The position numbers and the translations under genes are program-made. Positions 16,352-23,950 of a stretch of DNA of 53,812 nt are shown here, one piece after another. Within the stretch, counting starts at the first letter, position 1. The number at the start of each line of letters is the position of its first letter. The stretch comes from an uncultured archaeon (lineage in GTDB: Archaea > Asgardarchaeota > Thorarchaeia > Thorarchaeales > Thorarchaeaceae): NCBI GenBank assembly GCA_964558645.1, contig CAZLEV010000002.1, forward strand, positions 409,450 to 463,261, given 5' to 3'. The notes beneath the pieces were generated by a model. That model saw only the letters and a list, made by a program, of their open reading frames with translations, was not told the origin of the DNA and did not search any database.

Positions 16352-16611
16352 GGGGCTTGATGAGCCTTCTTACCAAGGCTCAACCAAAACAGGGGGCAGA
16401 TCTTCTGGATTCATTTTGTTTCAGAGTATTGTTCATGCCTACGTTAGTGTTCTACACTGCTCCCCAGTCAGCATTATACAATGAAGAGATAGAGTTCCTT
16501 TTCAATAGGAGAAGGTGTTCTGTTAGAGTTTCGAGGGGCGAATATATAGCAGACGCGCCAACATCTATGGCTCAATAGACATAATGGGCAGCGCGATTAA
16601 AGGCAGGCGAT

Positions 16612-16735
16612 CCTTCTGCTTGCTCCTGGGTGGCTCCAGAAGTTGATGGCGACATCAGGCAGAAGACGGATGGAACACAGAAGTCCGTAGGTGGGATTCA
16701 CTCCCTTAATGGACTCAGCCTCAAAACCATGTGTG
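16612..16735 (+). ncRNA. Orphan omegaRNA-like scaffold (3' part) plus putative guide (16702-16735)
   Basis: 64/87 ungapped identity of 16617-16703 to 23329-23415 downstream of tnpB, with compensatory base changes; ends GAAGTCC..GGATTCAC. Confidence 0.7.
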
Positions 16736-16781
16736 TGGTGCGGCCGCCGGGAATCGAACCCGGGCCATCAGCTTGGAAGGG
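16736..16781 (-). repeat. 3' half of tRNA-Gly(TCC), att-like duplication
   Basis: 32 nt identical to 23449-23480, extending to the anticodon loop TTGGAAGGG; anticodon stem variant GCTGA versus GGCTG. Confidence 0.9.
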
Positions 16782-16796
16782 GATGAACCGGACTTC

Positions 16797-19700
16797 TCAG
16801 TGAAAGAAACCCTCCAGAACCTCGAAGAACTCCTCCACATTCACTATGTGAAATCGACTCCAGTCACCCTCATCCAATAGCTGCAGAATGCTATTCACTA
16901 CCTCATCAGCATCAATACGTCGTGGAAGCTCCCATGAAACAGAGTCAAGAAGCTCATCTACCTCTCCAGCTCGTTTCACCTCCAGAGTGAGCGTCCTCCT
17001 CTGCAAGTCAGCCTCCAGTCGGGCTGGCATTTGCCCATCCCTCAGGCCCCGCGCCTCAAGTGCGCTTCTGATTCGAGCGCGCTGAGCTTCTGGATCATAG
17101 ATCGATTCTTCCGGAATCTCTGACGTGATATTCCTCCAGAGATCATCCAAGACCTCTGAGAGCTCTCGGACTACATCCAATTTATAGGTGAATGAGCGGT
17201 TCTTCCAGTATTCCCCCGTCAGACTGGACAGTGCTGCCCATTCGAGCCAGTCAGCTCTGATGGTCAAAGATATCTCCCATCTCTGCTGCTCAGCTCGAAG
17301 ATAGGTCCCGGGTTTCAGAGATGAAACCTCGAGTCCGCTCTTCCGCAGAATCTTTCTAATGAGTGGGCTCTCGCGGAAGACCATGTTCTCTCGCTGAACG
17401 TCTGATGGAAGAATGACTTTGACAGGATGAATCGTAGAATCGAAGACTATGCTCTCGGTTCCGAGTCGGAGGATGATCTCTCTATCAGTAAAAAGGCCGC
17501 AGAAGGCATCCGAGATTCTCTCATTCTCTCCCTCAAGAATTGACTGCCAGCATCTACCATGTTCCTTCCCCTCTCCCGAAGCCAGGGGACACTCGTTCTC
17601 GTTGTGGGATAGTCGAAAGCTGATCTCCTTACCACAGGGGAGGGCCTGTAGGTCCGCTATTCTTGCCGGTAGTCGGATATCAGCTGTTTCGGGAATGAAG
17701 GTCTCACTGACATTGGCCATGAGTGAGAGATCTCCATATTCGATGTCATTAAACCGGTCCCAGGAAACCATATGCCCAGACGATAGCCTTACAGGTAGAC
17801 CTTTGCTAGTGAGGGTCAATGTTTCGATGAGATTTGGCGTGAAGTGATGCTCTATCATCTGTAGGGACTCATCATCTTCGTTCTTGATGTCCACTCTGCA
17901 TCCCTCATCTGTCCACGACAGCTCCACTGACACATCTGTCTGCCCTTGAATCCGCCTGAGGACACGTCCAACAGCCTTTTCGAGTCGATGAGATAGACTG
18001 GCTGGAACCAAGATGTCAGTAGATCTTCGTGAGACTGGTTCTAAGATGGGGCCTTGTCTAGTGGCCCGGAGCATCGCAATTGAGCCCGTTGCTCTACCAG
18101 GGATGAAGTCGAATATGCTCCTTAGAATCCAGTCCGACTCCTCTGTTTCTCTTGTCCAGAACAACCAATCCCCATTGTTCTGCTGGAGAGCCAGAGAGAT
18201 GCGAGAGCCTGTATCCATGAGTTCGCGGACACTGTCAATGCGCTCTGAGATATCACTCTCAGCCCATTGCATCCCATCAGGGCGTGTAGCCAGCCTTTTG
18301 TTGAAGAAGCCCACAAGGACTCTAGCAGGATTCCTCGGGTCTTCCAGTGCAACAATGCTGATTGGTTGGTCAGGATCCTCTGAGTAAACTATCTGACCAA
18401 AGCTGGCAATCCTAGGTTTGGGAAGTTCAACAGTCTTAGGATAGGAGTCCCTCGCCTTGGATCTCTTATGCTTGGGACCACGATAGAGTCGGTGAGCATT
18501 GATCTGGCCGAGGAAGATATCGGCAAATGTCTTCTGCCCTCTTGTGCGAGGAGGACGATACCTGAGCCTATGCAGTAGAGGGGGTATATCTGCGGGTTCA
18601 CGGGAAACAGACCGTCTTGTTATTGTCAGACCTTCCATAGACTCATGAAACTCGTCGAAGGAGTCACGGAAAGCATCTGAGAGGGTCACACCGGGTGATA
18701 CCTCTGTGTTGGGCCACAGGTCAGCCAACCAGGGGAGCAGGCTCAATGCCAGCGACCTGATCCTCTCTCGAACCCACGCCTTCGGTACAACCTGCTCCTG
18801 TAGTTCAGACATCTCTGTCTTGGCCCGATCATATTCTTCGGTCCTGAACTTGGTAGCCCAGTGTCTAAGAACCGGGATGTGCAGAAGTGAGGTCTCAAAC
18901 CCGGAGGACGACTGGGCCACCACGACCCTGATGTCATCAAACATGGGGCTTCGAGGAGCGGACTGGCGGTGCCACGAGTCCGGGTCGATGACTCGTTCAG
19001 GCGCACATGGGAGGTTCCATATGATCTCATCCAGTTCACCCACAAGGGGAGAGGTATCACGAACAGGAATCAGGCAGTTGGTCGAGTAGATTGGAGTTCT
19101 TCGCTCATACTTCACCGGCCTTGAGAACCAGAGGATGGTTGTCTGTTCATCATCGGATAATCGGTCTACCAGCTCAGCCAGCAAGCGGTTCTTGCGGTCT
19201 CGATACGGTGAGGGCGTTGAGCCTTCAATCGCGTCCCACCCTGACACAACTAGCAGACGGGGCTGTTTCACTTTGTCTTCCAACACCCTCGACAGGTCAA
19301 GCATCGGGCCGTCATTGTAGAGGTATGCCTGAATGCCAGCAAAGAGTGGTTTGAACTCTATGGACTGGAGGGTTTCCTGCACTGCATCTGGCAGACCGTT
19401 CTCGGCCGGCCGCAGACGCGCCCTGAACCGAACCGCCCCAAACGAGGTTGTGGGGAACTCGTCAGCCAAGTCAAGCCAGACAACACGCAGGTCAGGAGTG
19501 GACTCTCGCAGCTGGTGGATCATCTGCAGGCCGTGATAGTGTCCTGCAATCCAAGCAGCCGAGGAGCCCGCTGATGTGGGAGATGCGGCCGAAACATAGA
19601 GGATGAAGCGTCTGGCTCGAATCCCAGCACCGGTCAATGGGTCATAGGGCGGTCTCCATTCCTGCGGCACCGAGGGCTGTCTGTAGTCTGGAGTGTGGTC

Positions 19701-21380
19701 CTGACTGTGGACCACGAGAGCCATGCGTGGTCTCAGGCCATTCCTCGAGACCTCATAGGTCGTCCTGCGTCCGGAGAGGTCATCCGTCAGGCTCGACTCG
19801 AGAGCCCGGACGACCAGACCCCGTATCATGCGCCTGCTCTCTCTGCTCTCATCAGTCGGGTCCATGACGAGTGTGGCCCGAATCACCCTTGGAGGACTCT
19901 CGAGATGCGCAATCGATCCGAAGGCCTCAGACAGGGCCTCCGCATAGGCATCCAGCTGGGTCACGGTGTTCGGCTCAGGGGTGCCATCAACGACCTGCAC
20001 CCACTCGTTGGGGCTGAGGGGACGCAGCGAGAGCCTGAACCGCGGAACCACCCGCTGGACCATCCCGTATCGCTTCCGAGATGACGAAGACCTCCGTTCA
20101 GGCTCCATGTACCACTTGAACCCGCAGCGGGTCTTGATCTCCACTACCATCACGGGGCGCCAGAGGGTACGTAGACCTGTGGGGGTGGCCTCCCTTCTGA
20201 ACACCACCAGATCTGCTCTGCCCTTGCCCAGCGAGGTCTCCAGCGGGAGCTCTGCGACAATCCTGAGACCTCCTCCGGCCCCATCGCGGTCATCGTCGCG
20301 GATGGCTCTCCGTACATCCAGAAACCGGTCGAATCGGTCCGTGATGCGCCTGTGGACCTGGGCACCCACCCTCTTCGTCCATCGAACCGCACTCTGCCAC
20401 AGGTGGCTCACATCGTCACTGGTCAGGCGTGGTGCCTTCTTCCCGTGCTCGTCCGTCAGGACCTCGGACCCGCCTGACAGGATTCGGGCAAACTCCCCGA
20501 TCACGGCCGGACTGACTCCACCCTCCTGAGCCTCTGCCAGCTGCTCTTCGAAGAAGTCCATGCTGAACCGGGGACGGGGATACTCCGCATGAGAGGACAC
20601 GGTCTCAGGCTCACCCACACGAACACCGTGGTGTGCCGCAATGTCATCACGGATCTCCCGCAGGAGTCGCACCGTCCCGTCCCTGAAGCCTGGCGACCCG
20701 TGTTCGAACTCCGTGTACAGGTGGTCAAGATACGTCCGTGCCCGGAGAATGAAGAGGTTGCTGTACCTGCGTGTGTCCCGCACCGACACATCATGGATGT
20801 AGGCGTCCGTGTTCAGGACCTGGATATGCTGTCGGAGAGCGTCCATGAAGTCCAGCTCGGTGAGGAAACGGTGGACGGAAGGATAGGCAGGCCAGCGTGA
20901 GTCGCCCGCGTACCCGTAGTCGATGTGCTCTCCCTTCTCGTTGAACAGGGGCTGGGGTTGCCCCATGGGATAGTAGATCGCCCCAAACTCCCGCAGGGCC
21001 GCGCCCCCCACATTGAACCGCTGATTCAGCGGCCCTACCTCCTCGTACCATCGCCGAGCACGCGTGGTCTCGGTGCAACCGTAGAGCGCCGCGTTCTCTT
21101 CCAGCATGTCCAGGCCGTTCTTCCTGATGTTGTGCTCCGCCTTCATCACGTGGGTGAAATTGGGGTTGCCCATGACCTTGGAGATTCGGTAGGCCTCGGT
21201 GTAACGGCGGAGGATGTCGCGCGAACTCTCGTACAGGTGACGGGTGGTCTTGCTCTGGATGGTGCGCTGCAGGTAGACAGCCGTGGACAGGCCTGTCCTC
21301 ATCGCCCGTGCCAGCACCCTGTTCGGATGCCTCGGGTACGGCCTCGCCCGCGGGCCTCGACTCCCTCTCATACGCATCAC
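16797..21380 (-). CDS. Large protein with PD-(D/E)XK nuclease domain and degenerate ATPase-like domain
   Basis: ELPL..GRADLVVF..VVEIKT..QLDAYAEAL (RecB/Cas4-type motif order), then RRFILYV..SAGSS..VVWLDLA..LLVVSGWD. Confidence 0.65.
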   Translation of the reverse strand: MMRMRGSRGPRARPYPRHPNRVLARAMRTGLSTAVYLQRTIQSKTTRHLYESSRDILRRYTEAYRISKVMGNPNFTHVMKAEHNIRKNGLDMLEENAALYGCTETTRARRWYEEVGPLNQRFNVGGAALREFGAIYYPMGQPQPLFNEKGEHIDYGYAGDSRWPAYPSVHRFLTELDFMDALRQHIQVLNTDAYIHDVSVRDTRRYSNLFILRARTYLDHLYTEFEHGSPGFRDGTVRLLREIRDDIAAHHGVRVGEPETVSSHAEYPRPRFSMDFFEEQLAEAQEGGVSPAVIGEFARILSGGSEVLTDEHGKKAPRLTSDDVSHLWQSAVRWTKRVGAQVHRRITDRFDRFLDVRRAIRDDDRDGAGGGLRIVAELPLETSLGKGRADLVVFRREATPTGLRTLWRPVMVVEIKTRCGFKWYMEPERRSSSSRKRYGMVQRVVPRFRLSLRPLSPNEWVQVVDGTPEPNTVTQLDAYAEALSEAFGSIAHLESPPRVIRATLVMDPTDESRESRRMIRGLVVRALESSLTDDLSGRRTTYEVSRNGLRPRMALVVHSQDHTPDYRQPSVPQEWRPPYDPLTGAGIRARRFILYVSAASPTSAGSSAAWIAGHYHGLQMIHQLRESTPDLRVVWLDLADEFPTTSFGAVRFRARLRPAENGLPDAVQETLQSIEFKPLFAGIQAYLYNDGPMLDLSRVLEDKVKQPRLLVVSGWDAIEGSTPSPYRDRKNRLLAELVDRLSDDEQTTILWFSRPVKYERRTPIYSTNCLIPVRDTSPLVGELDEIIWNLPCAPERVIDPDSWHRQSAPRSPMFDDIRVVVAQSSSGFETSLLHIPVLRHWATKFRTEEYDRAKTEMSELQEQVVPKAWVRERIRSLALSLLPWLADLWPNTEVSPGVTLSDAFRDSFDEFHESMEGLTITRRSVSREPADIPPLLHRLRYRPPRTRGQKTFADIFLGQINAHRLYRGPKHKRSKARDSYPKTVELPKPRIASFGQIVYSEDPDQPISIVALEDPRNPARVLVGFFNKRLATRPDGMQWAESDISERIDSVRELMDTGSRISLALQQNNGDWLFWTRETEESDWILRSIFDFIPGRATGSIAMLRATRQGPILEPVSRRSTDILVPASLSHRLEKAVGRVLRRIQGQTDVSVELSWTDEGCRVDIKNEDDESLQMIEHHFTPNLIETLTLTSKGLPVRLSSGHMVSWDRFNDIEYGDLSLMANVSETFIPETADIRLPARIADLQALPCGKEISFRLSHNENECPLASGEGKEHGRCWQSILEGENERISDAFCGLFTDREIILRLGTESIVFDSTIHPVKVILPSDVQRENMVFRESPLIRKILRKSGLEVSSLKPGTYLRAEQQRWEISLTIRADWLEWAALSSLTGEYWKNRSFTYKLDVVRELSEVLDDLWRNITSEIPEESIYDPEAQRARIRSALEARGLRDGQMPARLEADLQRRTLTLEVKRAGEVDELLDSVSWELPRRIDADEVVNSILQLLDEGDWSRFHIVNVEEFFEVLEGFFH

Positions 21381-21626
21381 ACTCTCTTCGCAGAGAAAAC
21401 TATCGTTGCTCCTGTGACCATATCAAAAAGTAGGTTTAATGTTTTTCGATTGAGAATTTAAGGTGTAGAGGATGAATAGACTAATTTAGTTAATTGTTTG
21501 GTCAAATTGCTTCATAGGTTTAAATGCTTTCATACTTACTCATTGTAGGAGTTCAAAACGCCTTCTGAAGCACAGGATGGCGAGTGAACTCCACTGACCG
21601 GACAGGTCAGAGGTTTAAATGCGAAG

Positions 21627-23312
21627 ATGATGGCGATGGTGACGTCCCAGGAACCAGTAATCACGGTCAAGATCCCCATCAACTGGGAGATGATGACTGC
21701 GAGGGCGCAACAGCGACTGCGGCAGACGGTTGGCAGGGACACCAGAGTCATCAGGGCGTTCTTCGGGATCATCGAGGAGAACGAGGAACAGCTCTTGAGG
21801 GGGAGGAACAGGGACCGTATCGATGAGAACAAGCTGCATGCCATGACCATGACCGCCCTGAAGGTGGCCGATGGGCAGGAGCAGCGCCCTGAGGTTGAAC
21901 ATGACCTGAAGGAGCAGTTCCCGAGGATATCGGCCAACGAGTTGAGTGAGTGCCGCAGGGTGGCGGTGGCGAACTATGAGAGCTACTTGGCTTTAAGGAA
22001 GAAGCGGTGGCGGAAGGCATCACGTCCCAGTGAGGTGAACCGGAGTCAGCGGATACCGAGAAGGATCTTCATACCATATCGGGCTGAGCTGGTTCGTCAT
22101 GAAACCACTGTGGCAACGTGGTGGTTGGAGCTGCGTGACTCGCTGGACTCGGTCCCCGAGGGTCGGCGGGTGCATGATAGGCTGACTGTGCCGCTGAAGA
22201 CCTCGCCCTTCCACCTTGAGCAGCTGGACAGAGGAGATAAGAAGTCTGTACAGGTGTTCACGGATAGGCAGGGGAAGTGGTGGGCGGCTGTGGCAGTGCG
22301 GTTGCCCGAGGTTGAGACTGAATCGGACCTGCCTCCGGCGGTGCTGGGAATCGATTTGGGGATCAACCGTGCTGTGTGTACGACCTTAGTGACTCCCGCC
22401 AAGGTCTCAGAGACCCGGTACTTTGTCCAGGAGCACAAGGTCAGGCTCATGAAGAGGTATGATGATAGGTTTGCTGACCTGCAGCGGGAGCTTGAGTTCT
22501 GCAAGACGGATGAGGAGCGCCACGACAACGTTGCTGCTAAGCTCCGAAGTCTTCGCTCCAAACGGGAACAGGTCTCCAAGGAGTACGACCGCCTCACTGT
22601 AAGCAGACTCATCTCCTACATTGAGGAACTGAGTCTCAAATATACAGTCTATGTTGCCATCGGCCGGGTCAAGGGCATCCGCAATACTGCTCGAAAGGGG
22701 AACTACAAGGGAAGGAAGTTTCGAGGGATGGTGCATCGCTGGAGCTTTGGGCGGGTGACGCGCACGCTCAAACATGGGCTCGAGCAACGAGGTTGGAGAA
22801 CCCAGGGGGAGAAGAGTCGATTTCACGTGGTTCCTGAGAACTGGACCTCCATCACCTGCTGGAAGTGTGGAAACAGAGGGATTCGACCGAAGCAGTCCCT
22901 CTTCATCTGTCACACCTGTGGGTTCAGAACGAATGCTGATAGAAACGGTTCCCTAAACATTGCGCGTCGATTAATCACGCTCATTCCTTCACTTACGAAT
23001 GAGAACGGACTAGGGCGGTGGGCCACTCCTGAACGGAGGCTCGGTTCAGCCCCGAAGGCTGTAAGGAAGGCTCGCTCTTCTAAGCAGAAGTCCGCACTCT
23101 CTCACAACGGTCAGGCATCAGGTCGGAGAGAGTCCGCGGTGGTTCGCCCCGCTCAGATGAGCATCCTTGACTTTGGCGACGAGGTCGAGGTTGGCGATGA
23201 TGATAGTGCCGTGGGAAAAGCTGTGGAAAGACTCTCTGCTCCCGGAATGGATGCGTCCGGAACAGAGCAGGAGAAGGAAGCCCGGACTGCAGGAGGGCCC
23301 GTGTCCCGATGA
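21627..23312 (+). CDS. tnpB: TnpB-family RNA-guided nuclease with rearranged (Fanzor-type) RuvC
   Basis: RuvC-I LGIDLGI; VAIGRV at the canonical RuvC-II position; VPENWTS then CWKC..CHTC zinc finger; RuvC-III NADRNGSLNIA. Confidence 0.9.
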   Translation: MMAMVTSQEPVITVKIPINWEMMTARAQQRLRQTVGRDTRVIRAFFGIIEENEEQLLRGRNRDRIDENKLHAMTMTALKVADGQEQRPEVEHDLKEQFPRISANELSECRRVAVANYESYLALRKKRWRKASRPSEVNRSQRIPRRIFIPYRAELVRHETTVATWWLELRDSLDSVPEGRRVHDRLTVPLKTSPFHLEQLDRGDKKSVQVFTDRQGKWWAAVAVRLPEVETESDLPPAVLGIDLGINRAVCTTLVTPAKVSETRYFVQEHKVRLMKRYDDRFADLQRELEFCKTDEERHDNVAAKLRSLRSKREQVSKEYDRLTVSRLISYIEELSLKYTVYVAIGRVKGIRNTARKGNYKGRKFRGMVHRWSFGRVTRTLKHGLEQRGWRTQGEKSRFHVVPENWTSITCWKCGNRGIRPKQSLFICHTCGFRTNADRNGSLNIARRLITLIPSLTNENGLGRWATPERRLGSAPKAVRKARSSKQKSALSHNGQASGRRESAVVRPAQMSILDFGDEVEVGDDDSAVGKAVERLSAPGMDASGTEQEKEARTAGGPVSR

Positions 23313-23323
23313 CCGCAGTCAAA

Positions 23324-23448
23324 GATCTTGCTTGCTCTGGGGTGGCTCCTAGAGTTAGTGGTGACACTGGGCAAGAGAAGGGCGGAACACAGAAGTCCAA
23401 AAAGAGGGTTCACTCATCTTGTATCGTTCTATTGGAAGGTCAAGAAAG
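23324..23448 (+). ncRNA. tnpB-linked omegaRNA scaffold 3' region plus putative guide (23414-23448); 5' end probably inside the tnpB tail
   Basis: Hairpins CTCTGGGG/TCCTAGAG, TAGTG-GTGA-CACTG, TCTTGC/GCAAGA and terminal AGTCC/GGGTT, then TTCAC. Confidence 0.7.
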
Positions 23449-23524
23449 TGGTGCGGCCGCCGGGAATCGAACCCGGGCCACAGCCTTGGAAGGGCTGAAT
23501 CCTAAACCCCTAGACAACGGCCGC
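23449..23524 (-). tRNA. tRNA-Gly(TCC), intronless, CCA encoded
   Basis: GCGGCCGTTGTCTAGGGGTTTAGGATTCAGCCCTTCCAAGGCTGTGGCCCGGGTTCGATTCCCGGCGGCCGCACCA. Confidence 0.96.
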
Positions 23525-23538
23525 CAGGGTCTACGAGA

Positions 23539-23854
23539 GGACTATCAGTGGAAGGGTCGGGTCATCATGATTCGACCCCTTCTCCAAATGTGCCTCTGGA
23601 GTCAAGGGTGCCAAAGCTGTGGATTTAAGCCTATTGCTAGAGTGAACGCTTTGGATGTATTAGTGGAAGGCTGGGATCATGCTTTGATTCGAGCCCATTC
23701 ACTTACACCAATGGAACATATCGGTGGAAGGCTGGGATCCGGTTTAGATCCAGATTTCATTGCGATAGCAAACGGACATATTAGTGGAAGGGTGGCATCC
23801 TATTTGCAACAACCTCAATTCATAGAATGGACGAATCAGTGGAAGGCCATTATC
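23539..23854. repeat. Degenerate ~60-bp-period repeat array, consensus GGA-N2-4-ATYAGTGGAAGG-N5-RTC
   Basis: GTGGAAGG at 23548, 23663, 23724, 23784 and 23839; related copies at 30219, 30335 and 30436. Confidence 0.8.
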
Positions 23855-23950
23855 ATCTACCAATAAGGCACTCATTGTATTCGCTTACAGGCTTGCGGAA
23901 ATAGAAATAAAGCCAAGAGAGAATAATCTCTCAAAGGATGTTTCTAGACC

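Follow-up and report, generated by a model that had tools for sequence, protein, structure and literature searches.

A TnpB with a relocated catalytic glutamate and a Cas1-like neighbour in a probable mobile element of Thorarchaeota

Introduction

What does it signify when a TnpB from an Asgard archaeon carries its RuvC-II glutamate at another place in the chain? The question is raised by an open reading frame (ORF) in a 53,812-nt stretch of DNA from an uncultured member of the Thorarchaeaceae (assembly GCA_964558645.1, contig CAZLEV010000002.1, positions 409,450 to 463,261 of the forward strand), here called the window. A reading made from the letters alone, referred to below as the sequence-only reading, had assigned this ORF to tnpB and had seen in its rearranged catalytic site a bearing on the origin of the eukaryotic Fanzors. 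Our analysis points to a different context. We consider it likely, with some room left for doubt, that the locus encodes a probably active TnpB with an alternative catalytic glutamate (E_alt), as one gene of a ~6.7-kb Thorarchaeota mobile element that also holds a Cas1-like protein and an omega-like RNA. The parts of the locus are as follows, in window coordinates.

~16782 to 23448: mobile element of ~6.7 kb, comprising tnpB, the RNA and a giant gene
21627 to 23312, plus strand: tnpB ORF, 561 aa, uninterrupted; the starts of homologues align with M4 (21636)
23007 to 23433, plus strand: omega-like structured RNA of ~430 nt, starting at GGACTAGG inside the ORF (codons ~461 to 561), running past the stop and ending ~15 nt before a tRNA gene; 3′ limit approximate
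16797 to 21380, minus strand: giant partner gene, 1527 aa, divergent from tnpB and starting 246 nt away from it
23449 to 23524, minus strand: intact tRNA-Gly(TCC), oriented with its 3′ end towards that of the omega-like RNA

Results

An intact TnpB with a moved catalytic glutamate

Profile searches placed the ORF among RNA-guided nucleases. In Pfam it matched PF07282 (Cas12f1-like TNB zinc-ribbon) over residues 396–445 with 43 bits against a cut-off of 26.3, and OrfB_IS605 weakly; NF040570 (guided_TnpB) of NCBIfam matched with E 4e-24 but stayed under its 100-bit cut-off at 85.5 bits, and the PADLOC models Cas12f and Cas12u with E 1e-19. An AlphaFold model built on 23 homologues gave a core (residues 11–458) mostly at a predicted local distance difference test (pLDDT) score of 70–90, with the WED/REC/RuvC fold of solved TnpB and Cas12f structures. 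Foldseek returned Cas12f, TnpB and other type V effectors at probability 1.0, among them AsCas12f (8j12, the best at E 4e-14), ISFba1 TnpB (8iaz, E 1e-10) and ISDra2 TnpB (8h1j, E 4e-9). More than 600 full-length homologues of 554–564 aa were found, nearly all in metagenome-assembled genomes (MAGs) of Thorarchaeota and a few in those of Lokiarchaeota, so the earlier attribution to an Asgard host is sound. Run against 1.8 billion cluster representatives, the family profile widened the set to 3933 relatives.

The catalytic positions and the zinc finger are listed below, all on the plus strand. Invariance was judged in an alignment of the 23 homologues, which are 55–90% identical.

22353 to 22355: codon of D243, the RuvC-I Asp, in an invariant D-L-G (GIDLG) at the end of beta-1 (residues 237–244)
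22662 to 22664: codon of G346, at the canonical RuvC-II Glu position, invariant (VAIGR), ending beta-4 (residues 340–346) and aligned with the Glu of a canonical relative, P0262
22836 to 22838: codon of E404, the alternative catalytic Glu, invariant (VPExWTS), 6 residues before C411 and 34 before D438
22857 to 22919: C4 zinc finger, C411-x2-C414 ... C428-x2-C431, all four Cys invariant
22938 to 22940: codon of D438, the RuvC-III Asp, in an invariant NADRNG motif

What the sequence-only reading had said of this site, namely a Gly in place of the canonical RuvC-II Glu, a new Glu just ahead of the finger and intact RuvC-I and RuvC-III aspartates, is borne out at every position. In the model, P403-E404 directly follow beta-5 (residues 399–402) and the RuvC-III helix begins at 437. 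The canonical relative P0262 reads IVMENLKGIR and has no Glu before the finger. Nearly all of the ~55 full-length cluster representatives listed combine Gly (rarely another small residue) with the alternative Glu, indicating that the combination is a fixed character of the clade and not a chance substitution.

The same arrangement has been described elsewhere. The main text of Altae-Tran et al. 2023 reports a Glu-to-Gly change with a compensating Glu on a site-facing loop, as in RuvX (PMC10691335). Yoon et al. place E_alt six residues before the first CxxC and search for it with the pattern D{P}G-x(120,160)-E-x6-CxxC-x(12,18)-CxxC-x(4,8)-D (PMC10711439); the corresponding spacings in the window TnpB are 158, 6, 13 and 6. 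ApmFz2, a solved and active Fanzor2, has the triad D324/E467/D501 with a Glu-to-Asp spacing of 34 (PMC11832414), equal to that between E404 and D438. When the family profile was compared with PDB chains, this Fanzor2 (9b0l) ranked 19th with a range offset of 63 at the start of the match, the difference of both 467 and 404 and 501 and 438, consistent in sequence with the equivalence of E404 to E467 and of D438 to D501. Two E_alt enzymes, ApmFNuc and TvTnpB, cut DNA and lose cleavage when the alternative Glu is mutated (PMC10530073). Since other E_alt enzymes cleave DNA, the window TnpB, with a putative triad D243-E404-D438, is by analogy most likely active as a nuclease. Judged by its sequence, it is an intact RNA-guided nuclease with a moved catalytic Glu, a known variant.

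A different reading of Gly346 is that it marks inactivation, the protein being a domesticated, nuclease-dead, RNA-guided DNA binder of the TldR kind. The canonical Glu is indeed gone, the copies within the genome are old and diverged, and the promoter region of tnpB itself carries an inverted GTTCACTC motif and paired TATA-like repeats (see below) that could be a regulatory target. TldR-type proteins, however, have lost catalytic residues or RuvC-III, while here D243, E404, D438 and the zinc-finger cysteines stay invariant in a family diverged to 45–55% identity. Enzymes with the same arrangement cleave DNA, and many copies per genome in varied contexts, with protein-less derivatives, amount to the behaviour of a mobile element. 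We regard domestication as very unlikely and an active E_alt TnpB as the better account of the same facts.

The rearranged site does not point to Fanzors

Because the host belongs to the archaeal group nearest eukaryotes and the relocated Glu is common to the window TnpB and Fanzors, the protein could be proposed as a prokaryotic forerunner of Fanzors (a 'pro-Fanzor') kept in Asgard archaea, with direct bearing on their origin. Fanzor2 is also present among the Foldseek matches (rank 22, E 7.5e-9), and Fanzor2 and Fanzor1 (ApmFz2, 9B0L; SpuFz1, 8GKH) are alike to it in the TnpB fold, the relocated Glu and the 34-residue spacing from E_alt to the RuvC-III Asp.

The signature of Fanzors and pro-Fanzors is D-P-G in RuvC-I together with E_alt, and pro-Fanzors are known only from cyanobacterial IS607 elements (PMC10711439), which carry a serine recombinase. 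At the window locus no serine recombinase was seen, and RuvC-I reads D243-L244-G245, invariant in the family, with D-L/F/I-G in nearly all of the wider representatives. E_alt itself arose in many TnpB branches: according to the main text of PMC10691335, a rearranged RuvC-II marks two major clades and eight large branches among prokaryotic TnpB/Cas12 proteins, some of them almost exclusively archaeal. The same text gives an NADxN RuvC-III as a hallmark of the 'derived TnpB' clade, and NADxN is what the window TnpB has. The family profile matched TnpB and Cas12f chains of the PDB at E 1e-14 to 1e-10 as against 0.006 for Fanzor2, and no chain named Fanzor1 was among its matches. Fanzors also differ in having eukaryotic or giant-virus hosts, a nuclear localisation signal and IS607 or eukaryotic transposase partners, none of which is found at the window locus; the hosts here are MAGs of Thorarchaeota and Lokiarchaeota, and the neighbour is a Cas1-like giant protein.

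A pro-Fanzor identity is thus extremely improbable. The tie to Fanzors drawn by the sequence-only reading falls away, E_alt being widespread in prokaryotic TnpB and RuvC-I being D-L-G and not D-P-G; on the motifs and scores, a significance of the window TnpB for Fanzor origins is not supported.

The C-terminal tail overlaps an omega-like RNA

The low-complexity tail, put at ~110 aa by the sequence-only reading and thought to overlap the omega RNA, proved real at ~100 aa: residues 459–561 were modelled as disordered with pLDDT below 30. A search of the archaeon's own genome found full and partial paralogues and, in addition, about eight sites matching only residues ~459–561, several of them with in-frame stops. 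These tail-only copies all begin at GGACTAGG. In a nucleotide alignment of the window, the paralogues and the protein-less copies, similarity extends from GGACTAGG (23007) across the stop codon (23310–23312) to about 23433.

Codon-position entropy was computed over 63 gene copies. At first, second and third positions it is 0.6–0.9, 0.5–0.6 and 1.4–1.55 in the core, and 0.74, 0.73 and 0.84 in the tail, where third positions are as constrained as first and second ones. RNAalifold on 70 copies predicted 91 pairs, 59 of which show at least one double compensatory change; the pairs include a long-range helix that joins CUGUG to the CACAG conserved in AACACAGAAGT. The flat entropy, the tnpB-less copies with stops and the covariation indicate that the tail is conserved as nucleic acid and not as protein, as expected of an overlap with the omega RNA.

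An alternative is a functional disordered tail conserved through selection on the protein. In 62 of the 63 gene-linked copies and in over 100 database homologues of 554–564 aa the frame runs open as far as the same stop, and some tail residues are invariant in the 23-homologue alignment. Third positions conserved like the others, unlike in the rest of the gene, argue against this alternative, as do the persistence of the tail sequence without tnpB and with in-frame stops, the abundance of compensatory base-pair changes and the very low pLDDT. We find selection on the protein unlikely; translation of a tail that overlaps a conserved RNA may simply be tolerated.

An internal promoter for this RNA was sought, and no conserved TATA-like box was found upstream of GGACTAGG in the gene-linked copies; the protein-less copies have ATTATATA ~33 nt upstream of the RNA. 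Just before GGACTAGG, at ~22977–23006, gene-linked copies keep CTCACA...TGTGAG, a possible further hairpin, and given this conservation the RNA may start earlier or be cut from the mRNA. Rfam contained no known RNA family matching the region.

The 3′ end of the RNA and the position of the guide

The RNA ends in a segment whose layout bears on where the guide lies.

23386 to 23416, plus strand: AACACAGAAGT, a short variable stretch and GTTCACTCA (23408–23416), forming the 5′ arm and apex of a 3′-terminal hairpin in most copies of the family

In the window, a conserved T at 23396 is followed by the variable positions 23397–23407 and then by GTTCACTCA. Across the 70 aligned copies the variable stretch measures 11–15 nt and varies more than any other part of the RNA, and GTTCACTCA is present in nearly all, with few variants. 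When each copy was folded, the variable stretch paired in most of them with the bases after GUUCAC, and we accordingly read it as the arm of a stem. The hairpin is imperfect, with 10–15 bp and the apex GUUCACUCA; ~7 unpaired nt follow (GGUUAU or GGUCAG), after which similarity stops. The minimum-energy fold of the window copy itself does not give the terminal hairpin, and in its subgroup the motif and the tRNA lie ~30 variable nt apart.

A variable stretch between a conserved T and GTTCACTCA downstream of Asgard tnpBs associated with a Cas1 homologue (aCas1) is described in the main text of PMC10691335, which suggested that it might be a spacer-like guide. On this suggestion of Altae-Tran et al. 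2023 the guide would be internal, the stretch between AAGT and GTTCACTCA being a repeat-flanked spacer in a CRISPR-like single-spacer unit beside a Cas1 homologue. High variability suits the idea, a Cas1-like gene does adjoin, and GTTCACTCA resembles the start of a CRISPR repeat (main text of PMC10691335). Yet the stretch has just 11–15 nt and is a hairpin stem in most of the 70 copies, its variation appearing compensated, and several independent copies in one genome have the same 'variable' sequence. An internal guide seems to us improbable. By analogy with IS605-type elements, the guide is expected beyond the terminal hairpin, toward TGGTGCGGCC of the tRNA.

A giant Cas1-like partner gene

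The gene divergent from tnpB encodes a protein of several domains.

Residues ~7 to 235: Cas1-like catalytic helical domain, from fold matches
E374, D387 and E411-x-K413: PD-(D/E)xK nuclease motif, from the family alignment
Residues ~585 to 835: RecA/RAD51/KaiC-like domain without the Walker A lysine, from fold matches
C-terminal region: rich in His and Cys

Among 62 loci, the related tnpB loci with enough upstream sequence, 42 have the two genes as divergent neighbours a median of 248 nt apart (range 221–298), and the flanking genes vary. Homologues of the giant protein were found only in Thorarchaeota and Lokiarchaeota. A model of residues 1–1000 reached pLDDT 82 and a predicted template modelling score (pTM) of 0.81. 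In a fold search independent of Foldseek, residues 7–235 matched nine Cas1 or casposase entries with Z 8.6–13.1, the best being 8flj (13.1), 4w8k (12.1), 7kft (11.1), 2yzs (10.1) and 6opm (10.1), and residues 585–835 matched RecA/RAD51/KaiC-like proteins with Z 11–13. The latter domain has a P-loop-like SPTSxGxSAAW in the family alignment, its lysine missing. In the former, H167...LDFxD177xxR180 aligns to the H...LDLxExxR catalytic motif of Cas1, the sole stretch aligned by hhalign. Pfam, NCBIfam, PADLOC, PDB profiles and the ESM Atlas yielded nothing usable for the giant protein, just HSDR_N_2 at E 0.09 in 2 of 16 members. The only Pfam-detectable Cas1 of the genome (C4:109177-110016) adjoins no tnpB copy.

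The giant protein is the probable mobility enzyme of the element. The sequence-only reading had remarked that no tnpA was adjacent. That holds for the known kinds: no Y1 or serine tnpA lies next door, and Pfam detected no Y1_Tnp domain in either gene of the element, the rest of the genome not having been searched for Y1 TnpA. It is incomplete in that a Cas1-like giant gene adjoins and may fill the role.

The downstream GTTCACTCA motif and the adjacent Cas1-like giant gene together assign the locus to the Cas1H-Asgard kind, the Cas1 homologue being recognised here by fold and motif, without a significant sequence match.

Borders at a tRNA-Gly gene, and derivatives of the element

Two further features define the left side of the element.

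16735 to 16781, minus strand: displaced 3′ half of tRNA-Gly, 47 nt, from the anticodon loop to the 3′ end, 91% identical to 23448–23494; left border, just past the stop of the giant gene
16604 to 16706, plus strand: ~100-nt remnant of another, older omega-like RNA, from its 3′ end (a GATTCACTC variant), to the left of the displaced tRNA half

Between the two tRNA copies G+C is 55–62%, against 41–50% in the flanks. Related elements in four other genomes (L015, L020, L021 and L022) end ~30 nt before a tRNA-Gly gene, and a decayed tRNA half stands at the left border in L015, L020 and L021. The remnant at 16604–16706 is 82% identical to the right end of L021 and 74% to the window's own, which suggests that the tRNA-Gly site has been occupied serially. 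L014, the closest relative, has a left flank syntenic with the window; in tandem between its element and the tRNA-Gly lies a second tnpB unit (L014:11904-13803, CAYYQL010000006.1), which has an omega-like RNA of its own and no giant gene. Weak Rfam matches to tmRNA and permuted tmRNA at 16736–16861 coincide with the partial tRNA-Gly copy, and a tmRNA there was ruled out on that account.

The genome holds several diverged tnpB copies, 45–56% identical to one another, and shorter derivatives of two kinds, listed here by contig of the same genome (G000).

C5:237325-237796, C15:57484-57954, C2:161611-162075, C4:65089-65563, C9:22622-23090 and C4:5379-5853, among others: protein-less RNA copies of ~470 nt (L006–L012)
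C13:103976-104153, C6:184836-185009, C17:54854-55036, C26:18265-18441, C2:325271-325459 and C2:404417-404597: mini copies of ~175–190 nt, at least six

The protein-less copies start at GGACTAGG, with the TATA-like box already mentioned ahead of it, and their left-end segment contains GTGTCAGAA repeatedly. These copies may be non-autonomous elements, or guide RNAs transcribed on their own. In the mini copies ~100 nt of left end is fused to the 3′-terminal ~80 nt of the RNA, and CTAGAA-like sequences of 6–9 nt are repeated in their flanks. At one of them (C2:404412/404586) the repeat is a perfect 9-bp ATCTGGAAT, its copies 174 bp apart, and removal of the insert opens a 132-codon frame across the junction. 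Direct repeats of this kind would fit either integration at staggered cuts, made by a Cas1-type enzyme, or site-specific recombination.

Several contigs end within copies of tnpB or of the omega-like RNA (C10:132324-132622, C28:3-1298, C14:1-320 and C8:1-187), so copy number in the MAG is probably undercounted.

Just beyond the tRNA-Gly gene, at 23537–23856, a ~29-nt unit (consensus around TATTAGTGGAAGGCTGGGATCAT) occurs five times at spacings of 55–115 nt. The TGGAAGG in these repeats is the anticodon-loop sequence of tRNA-Gly on this strand. An ORF running over them (23309–23866) had no family match.

Paired motifs in the tnpB promoter region

The stretch between the two divergent genes contains a motif found again at the RNA 3′ end, bracketed by short repeats.

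21582 to 21589, plus strand: GAGTGAAC, an inverted copy of the GTTCACTC motif, ~45 nt before the tnpB start codon; four paralogues compared
21516 to 21527 and 21611 to 21622, plus strand: two identical 12-nt TATA-box-like direct repeats, AGGTTTAAATGC, bracketing the inverted motif

GAGTGAAC is the inverse of GTTCACTC at the 3′ hairpin of the RNA (23408–23415). GAGTGAA occurs at about −55 in 49 of 59 loci, and the consensus common to the inverted pair spans ~17 nt (CAGTTGAG-TTCACTC-C), with the giant gene outside the pair. Exact repeats of 9–15 nt are found in 48 of the 59 loci, nearly all at about −118 and −23 and hence ~95 nt apart; these TATA-like repeats are identical within a locus and differ between loci.

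Co-variation of the flanks of the inverted GTTCACTC motifs within elements was looked for in 42 elements and rejected: an element's own pairs had 7.95 matches and other pairs 7.85 (permutation p 0.36). The motifs at left and right ends have only the consensus in common.

Occurrence in sequencing runs

The window stretch is present in two marine-sediment DNA runs, possibly those from which it derives, and in one freshwater-sediment run. The sole RNA run, a salt-lake metatranscriptome, holds relatives 85–95% identical to it. Its contigs are deepest over 23028–23175, the 5′ part of the RNA, and one adaptor junction falls at ~22999. Coming from a different organism, the contig depth and the one junction do not demonstrate that this locus is transcribed, and hint only weakly, if at all, at an RNA end close to GGACTAGG.

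Discussion

The element can be pictured as follows, largely by analogy. TnpB would bind the ~430-nt omega-like RNA as a scaffold; the sequence just beyond the terminal hairpin with the apex GUUCACUCA would act as guide; and cleavage of unoccupied target sites would keep or spread the element, with the Cas1-like giant protein performing integration. In this scheme we only infer nuclease activity, the position of the guide, the target-adjacent motif (TAM) and integration by the Cas1-like protein.

Several observations weigh against a probably active, Cas1-like-protein-bearing TnpB element. The TnpB score lies under the curated NCBIfam cut-off (85.5 against 100 bits), and the presumed closeness of E404 to D243 and D438 in the model comes from topology and homology. 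No giant gene was detectable in 17 of the 62 loci. The Cas1 similarity of the modelled giant protein is at the level of the fold only, where a Z near 13 in a helical domain can be chance: a PDB profile search of the protein gave no Cas1 match, and hhalign between its N-terminal domain and the genome's own Cas1 gave a non-significant E of 0.22. The terminal hairpin is weaker in the window's subgroup than in most relatives; the ends of the element are approximate in the window copy, and its guide is placed by analogy. With within-genome copies 45–56% identical there is no sign of recent transposition of a full element, and the direct repeats in the flanks speak against a mechanism of the IS605 type, from which insertion free of target-site duplication is expected.

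Among known systems the closest are the aCas1-associated Asgard TnpBs (Cas1H-Asgard-1 and -2). As described in the main text of PMC10691335, these have an Asgard host, tnpB beside a highly diverged Cas1 homologue and a variable stretch leading to GTTCACTCA, in a repeat-flanked locus presumed to be a new kind of transposon, all of which the window shares. That main text does not mention the hairpin arm, the RNA overlap of ~100 codons, the protein-less derivatives, the tRNA-Gly insertion or the PD-(D/E)xK and RecA-like parts of the Cas1-like protein. Such elements are thus already described, from genomes only, and are experimentally untouched. The Cas1 homologues associated with aCas1 Asgard TnpBs were reportedly treated by Makarova et al. 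in the CRISPR J in 2020. The hairpin reading, tRNA-Gly targeting, giant-protein architecture, protein-less derivatives and promoter repeats are useful leads, not a new category.

RuvC-II-rearranged TnpBs (RIIr, 'TnpB2'), such as TvTnpB of Thermoplasma volcanium, resemble the window TnpB in the Gly, in the Glu after beta-5 and six residues before the finger, in an NADxN RuvC-III and in an omega RNA at the 3′ end of the gene. TvTnpB, however, has ~400 aa and belongs to an IS605 element with a Y1 TnpA, whereas the window protein has 561 aa, including the ~100-aa tail, and a Cas1-like partner.

Casposons, self-synthesising transposons driven by Cas1, prefer tRNA genes. Like the window element, they have a Cas1-type integrase as the presumed mobility enzyme and insert at the 3′ end of a tRNA with direct repeats of the target. 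Their repeats are of 14–15 bp, compared with ~46 nt of tRNA here, and no PolB-type polymerase was seen among the two genes of the window element, its cargo being TnpB and the omega RNA.

IS200/IS605 elements (ISDra2, IS608) share an omega RNA overlapping the tnpB 3′ end, a subterminal hairpin at the right end and non-autonomous derivatives that keep the ends. Unlike them, the window element has no Y1 TnpA, its mini copies are flanked by direct repeats and its RNA is about twice as long.

A bolder proposal is that TnpB and its aCas1 partner form a module in which a Cas1-type integrase targets and duplicates a defined ~46-nt segment of the tRNA in the manner of a CRISPR repeat, coupled to a TnpB whose RNA reads toward the site. 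We offer it as a long shot. Were it true that the Cas1-like protein writes the repeat-insert-repeat unit of the promoter, the locus would be a surviving link between casposon-like elements and an adaptive, CRISPR-like locus built on TnpB.

TnpBs with a relocated Glu are well documented, tested in other members and not specific to Fanzors, and the catalytic site described here is in that respect ordinary. It adds a further compact E_alt nuclease (~460 aa once the tail is removed), of predicted activity, for the development of tools; the E_alt enzymes assayed to date are not known to have collateral activity. The terminal hairpin reinterprets the published 'hypervariable, possibly guide' stretch, and the protein-less derivatives are useful for defining the ends of the element. 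The window is a clean and intact example of its kind, through which a Cas1-driven, TnpB-carrying mechanism becomes directly testable.

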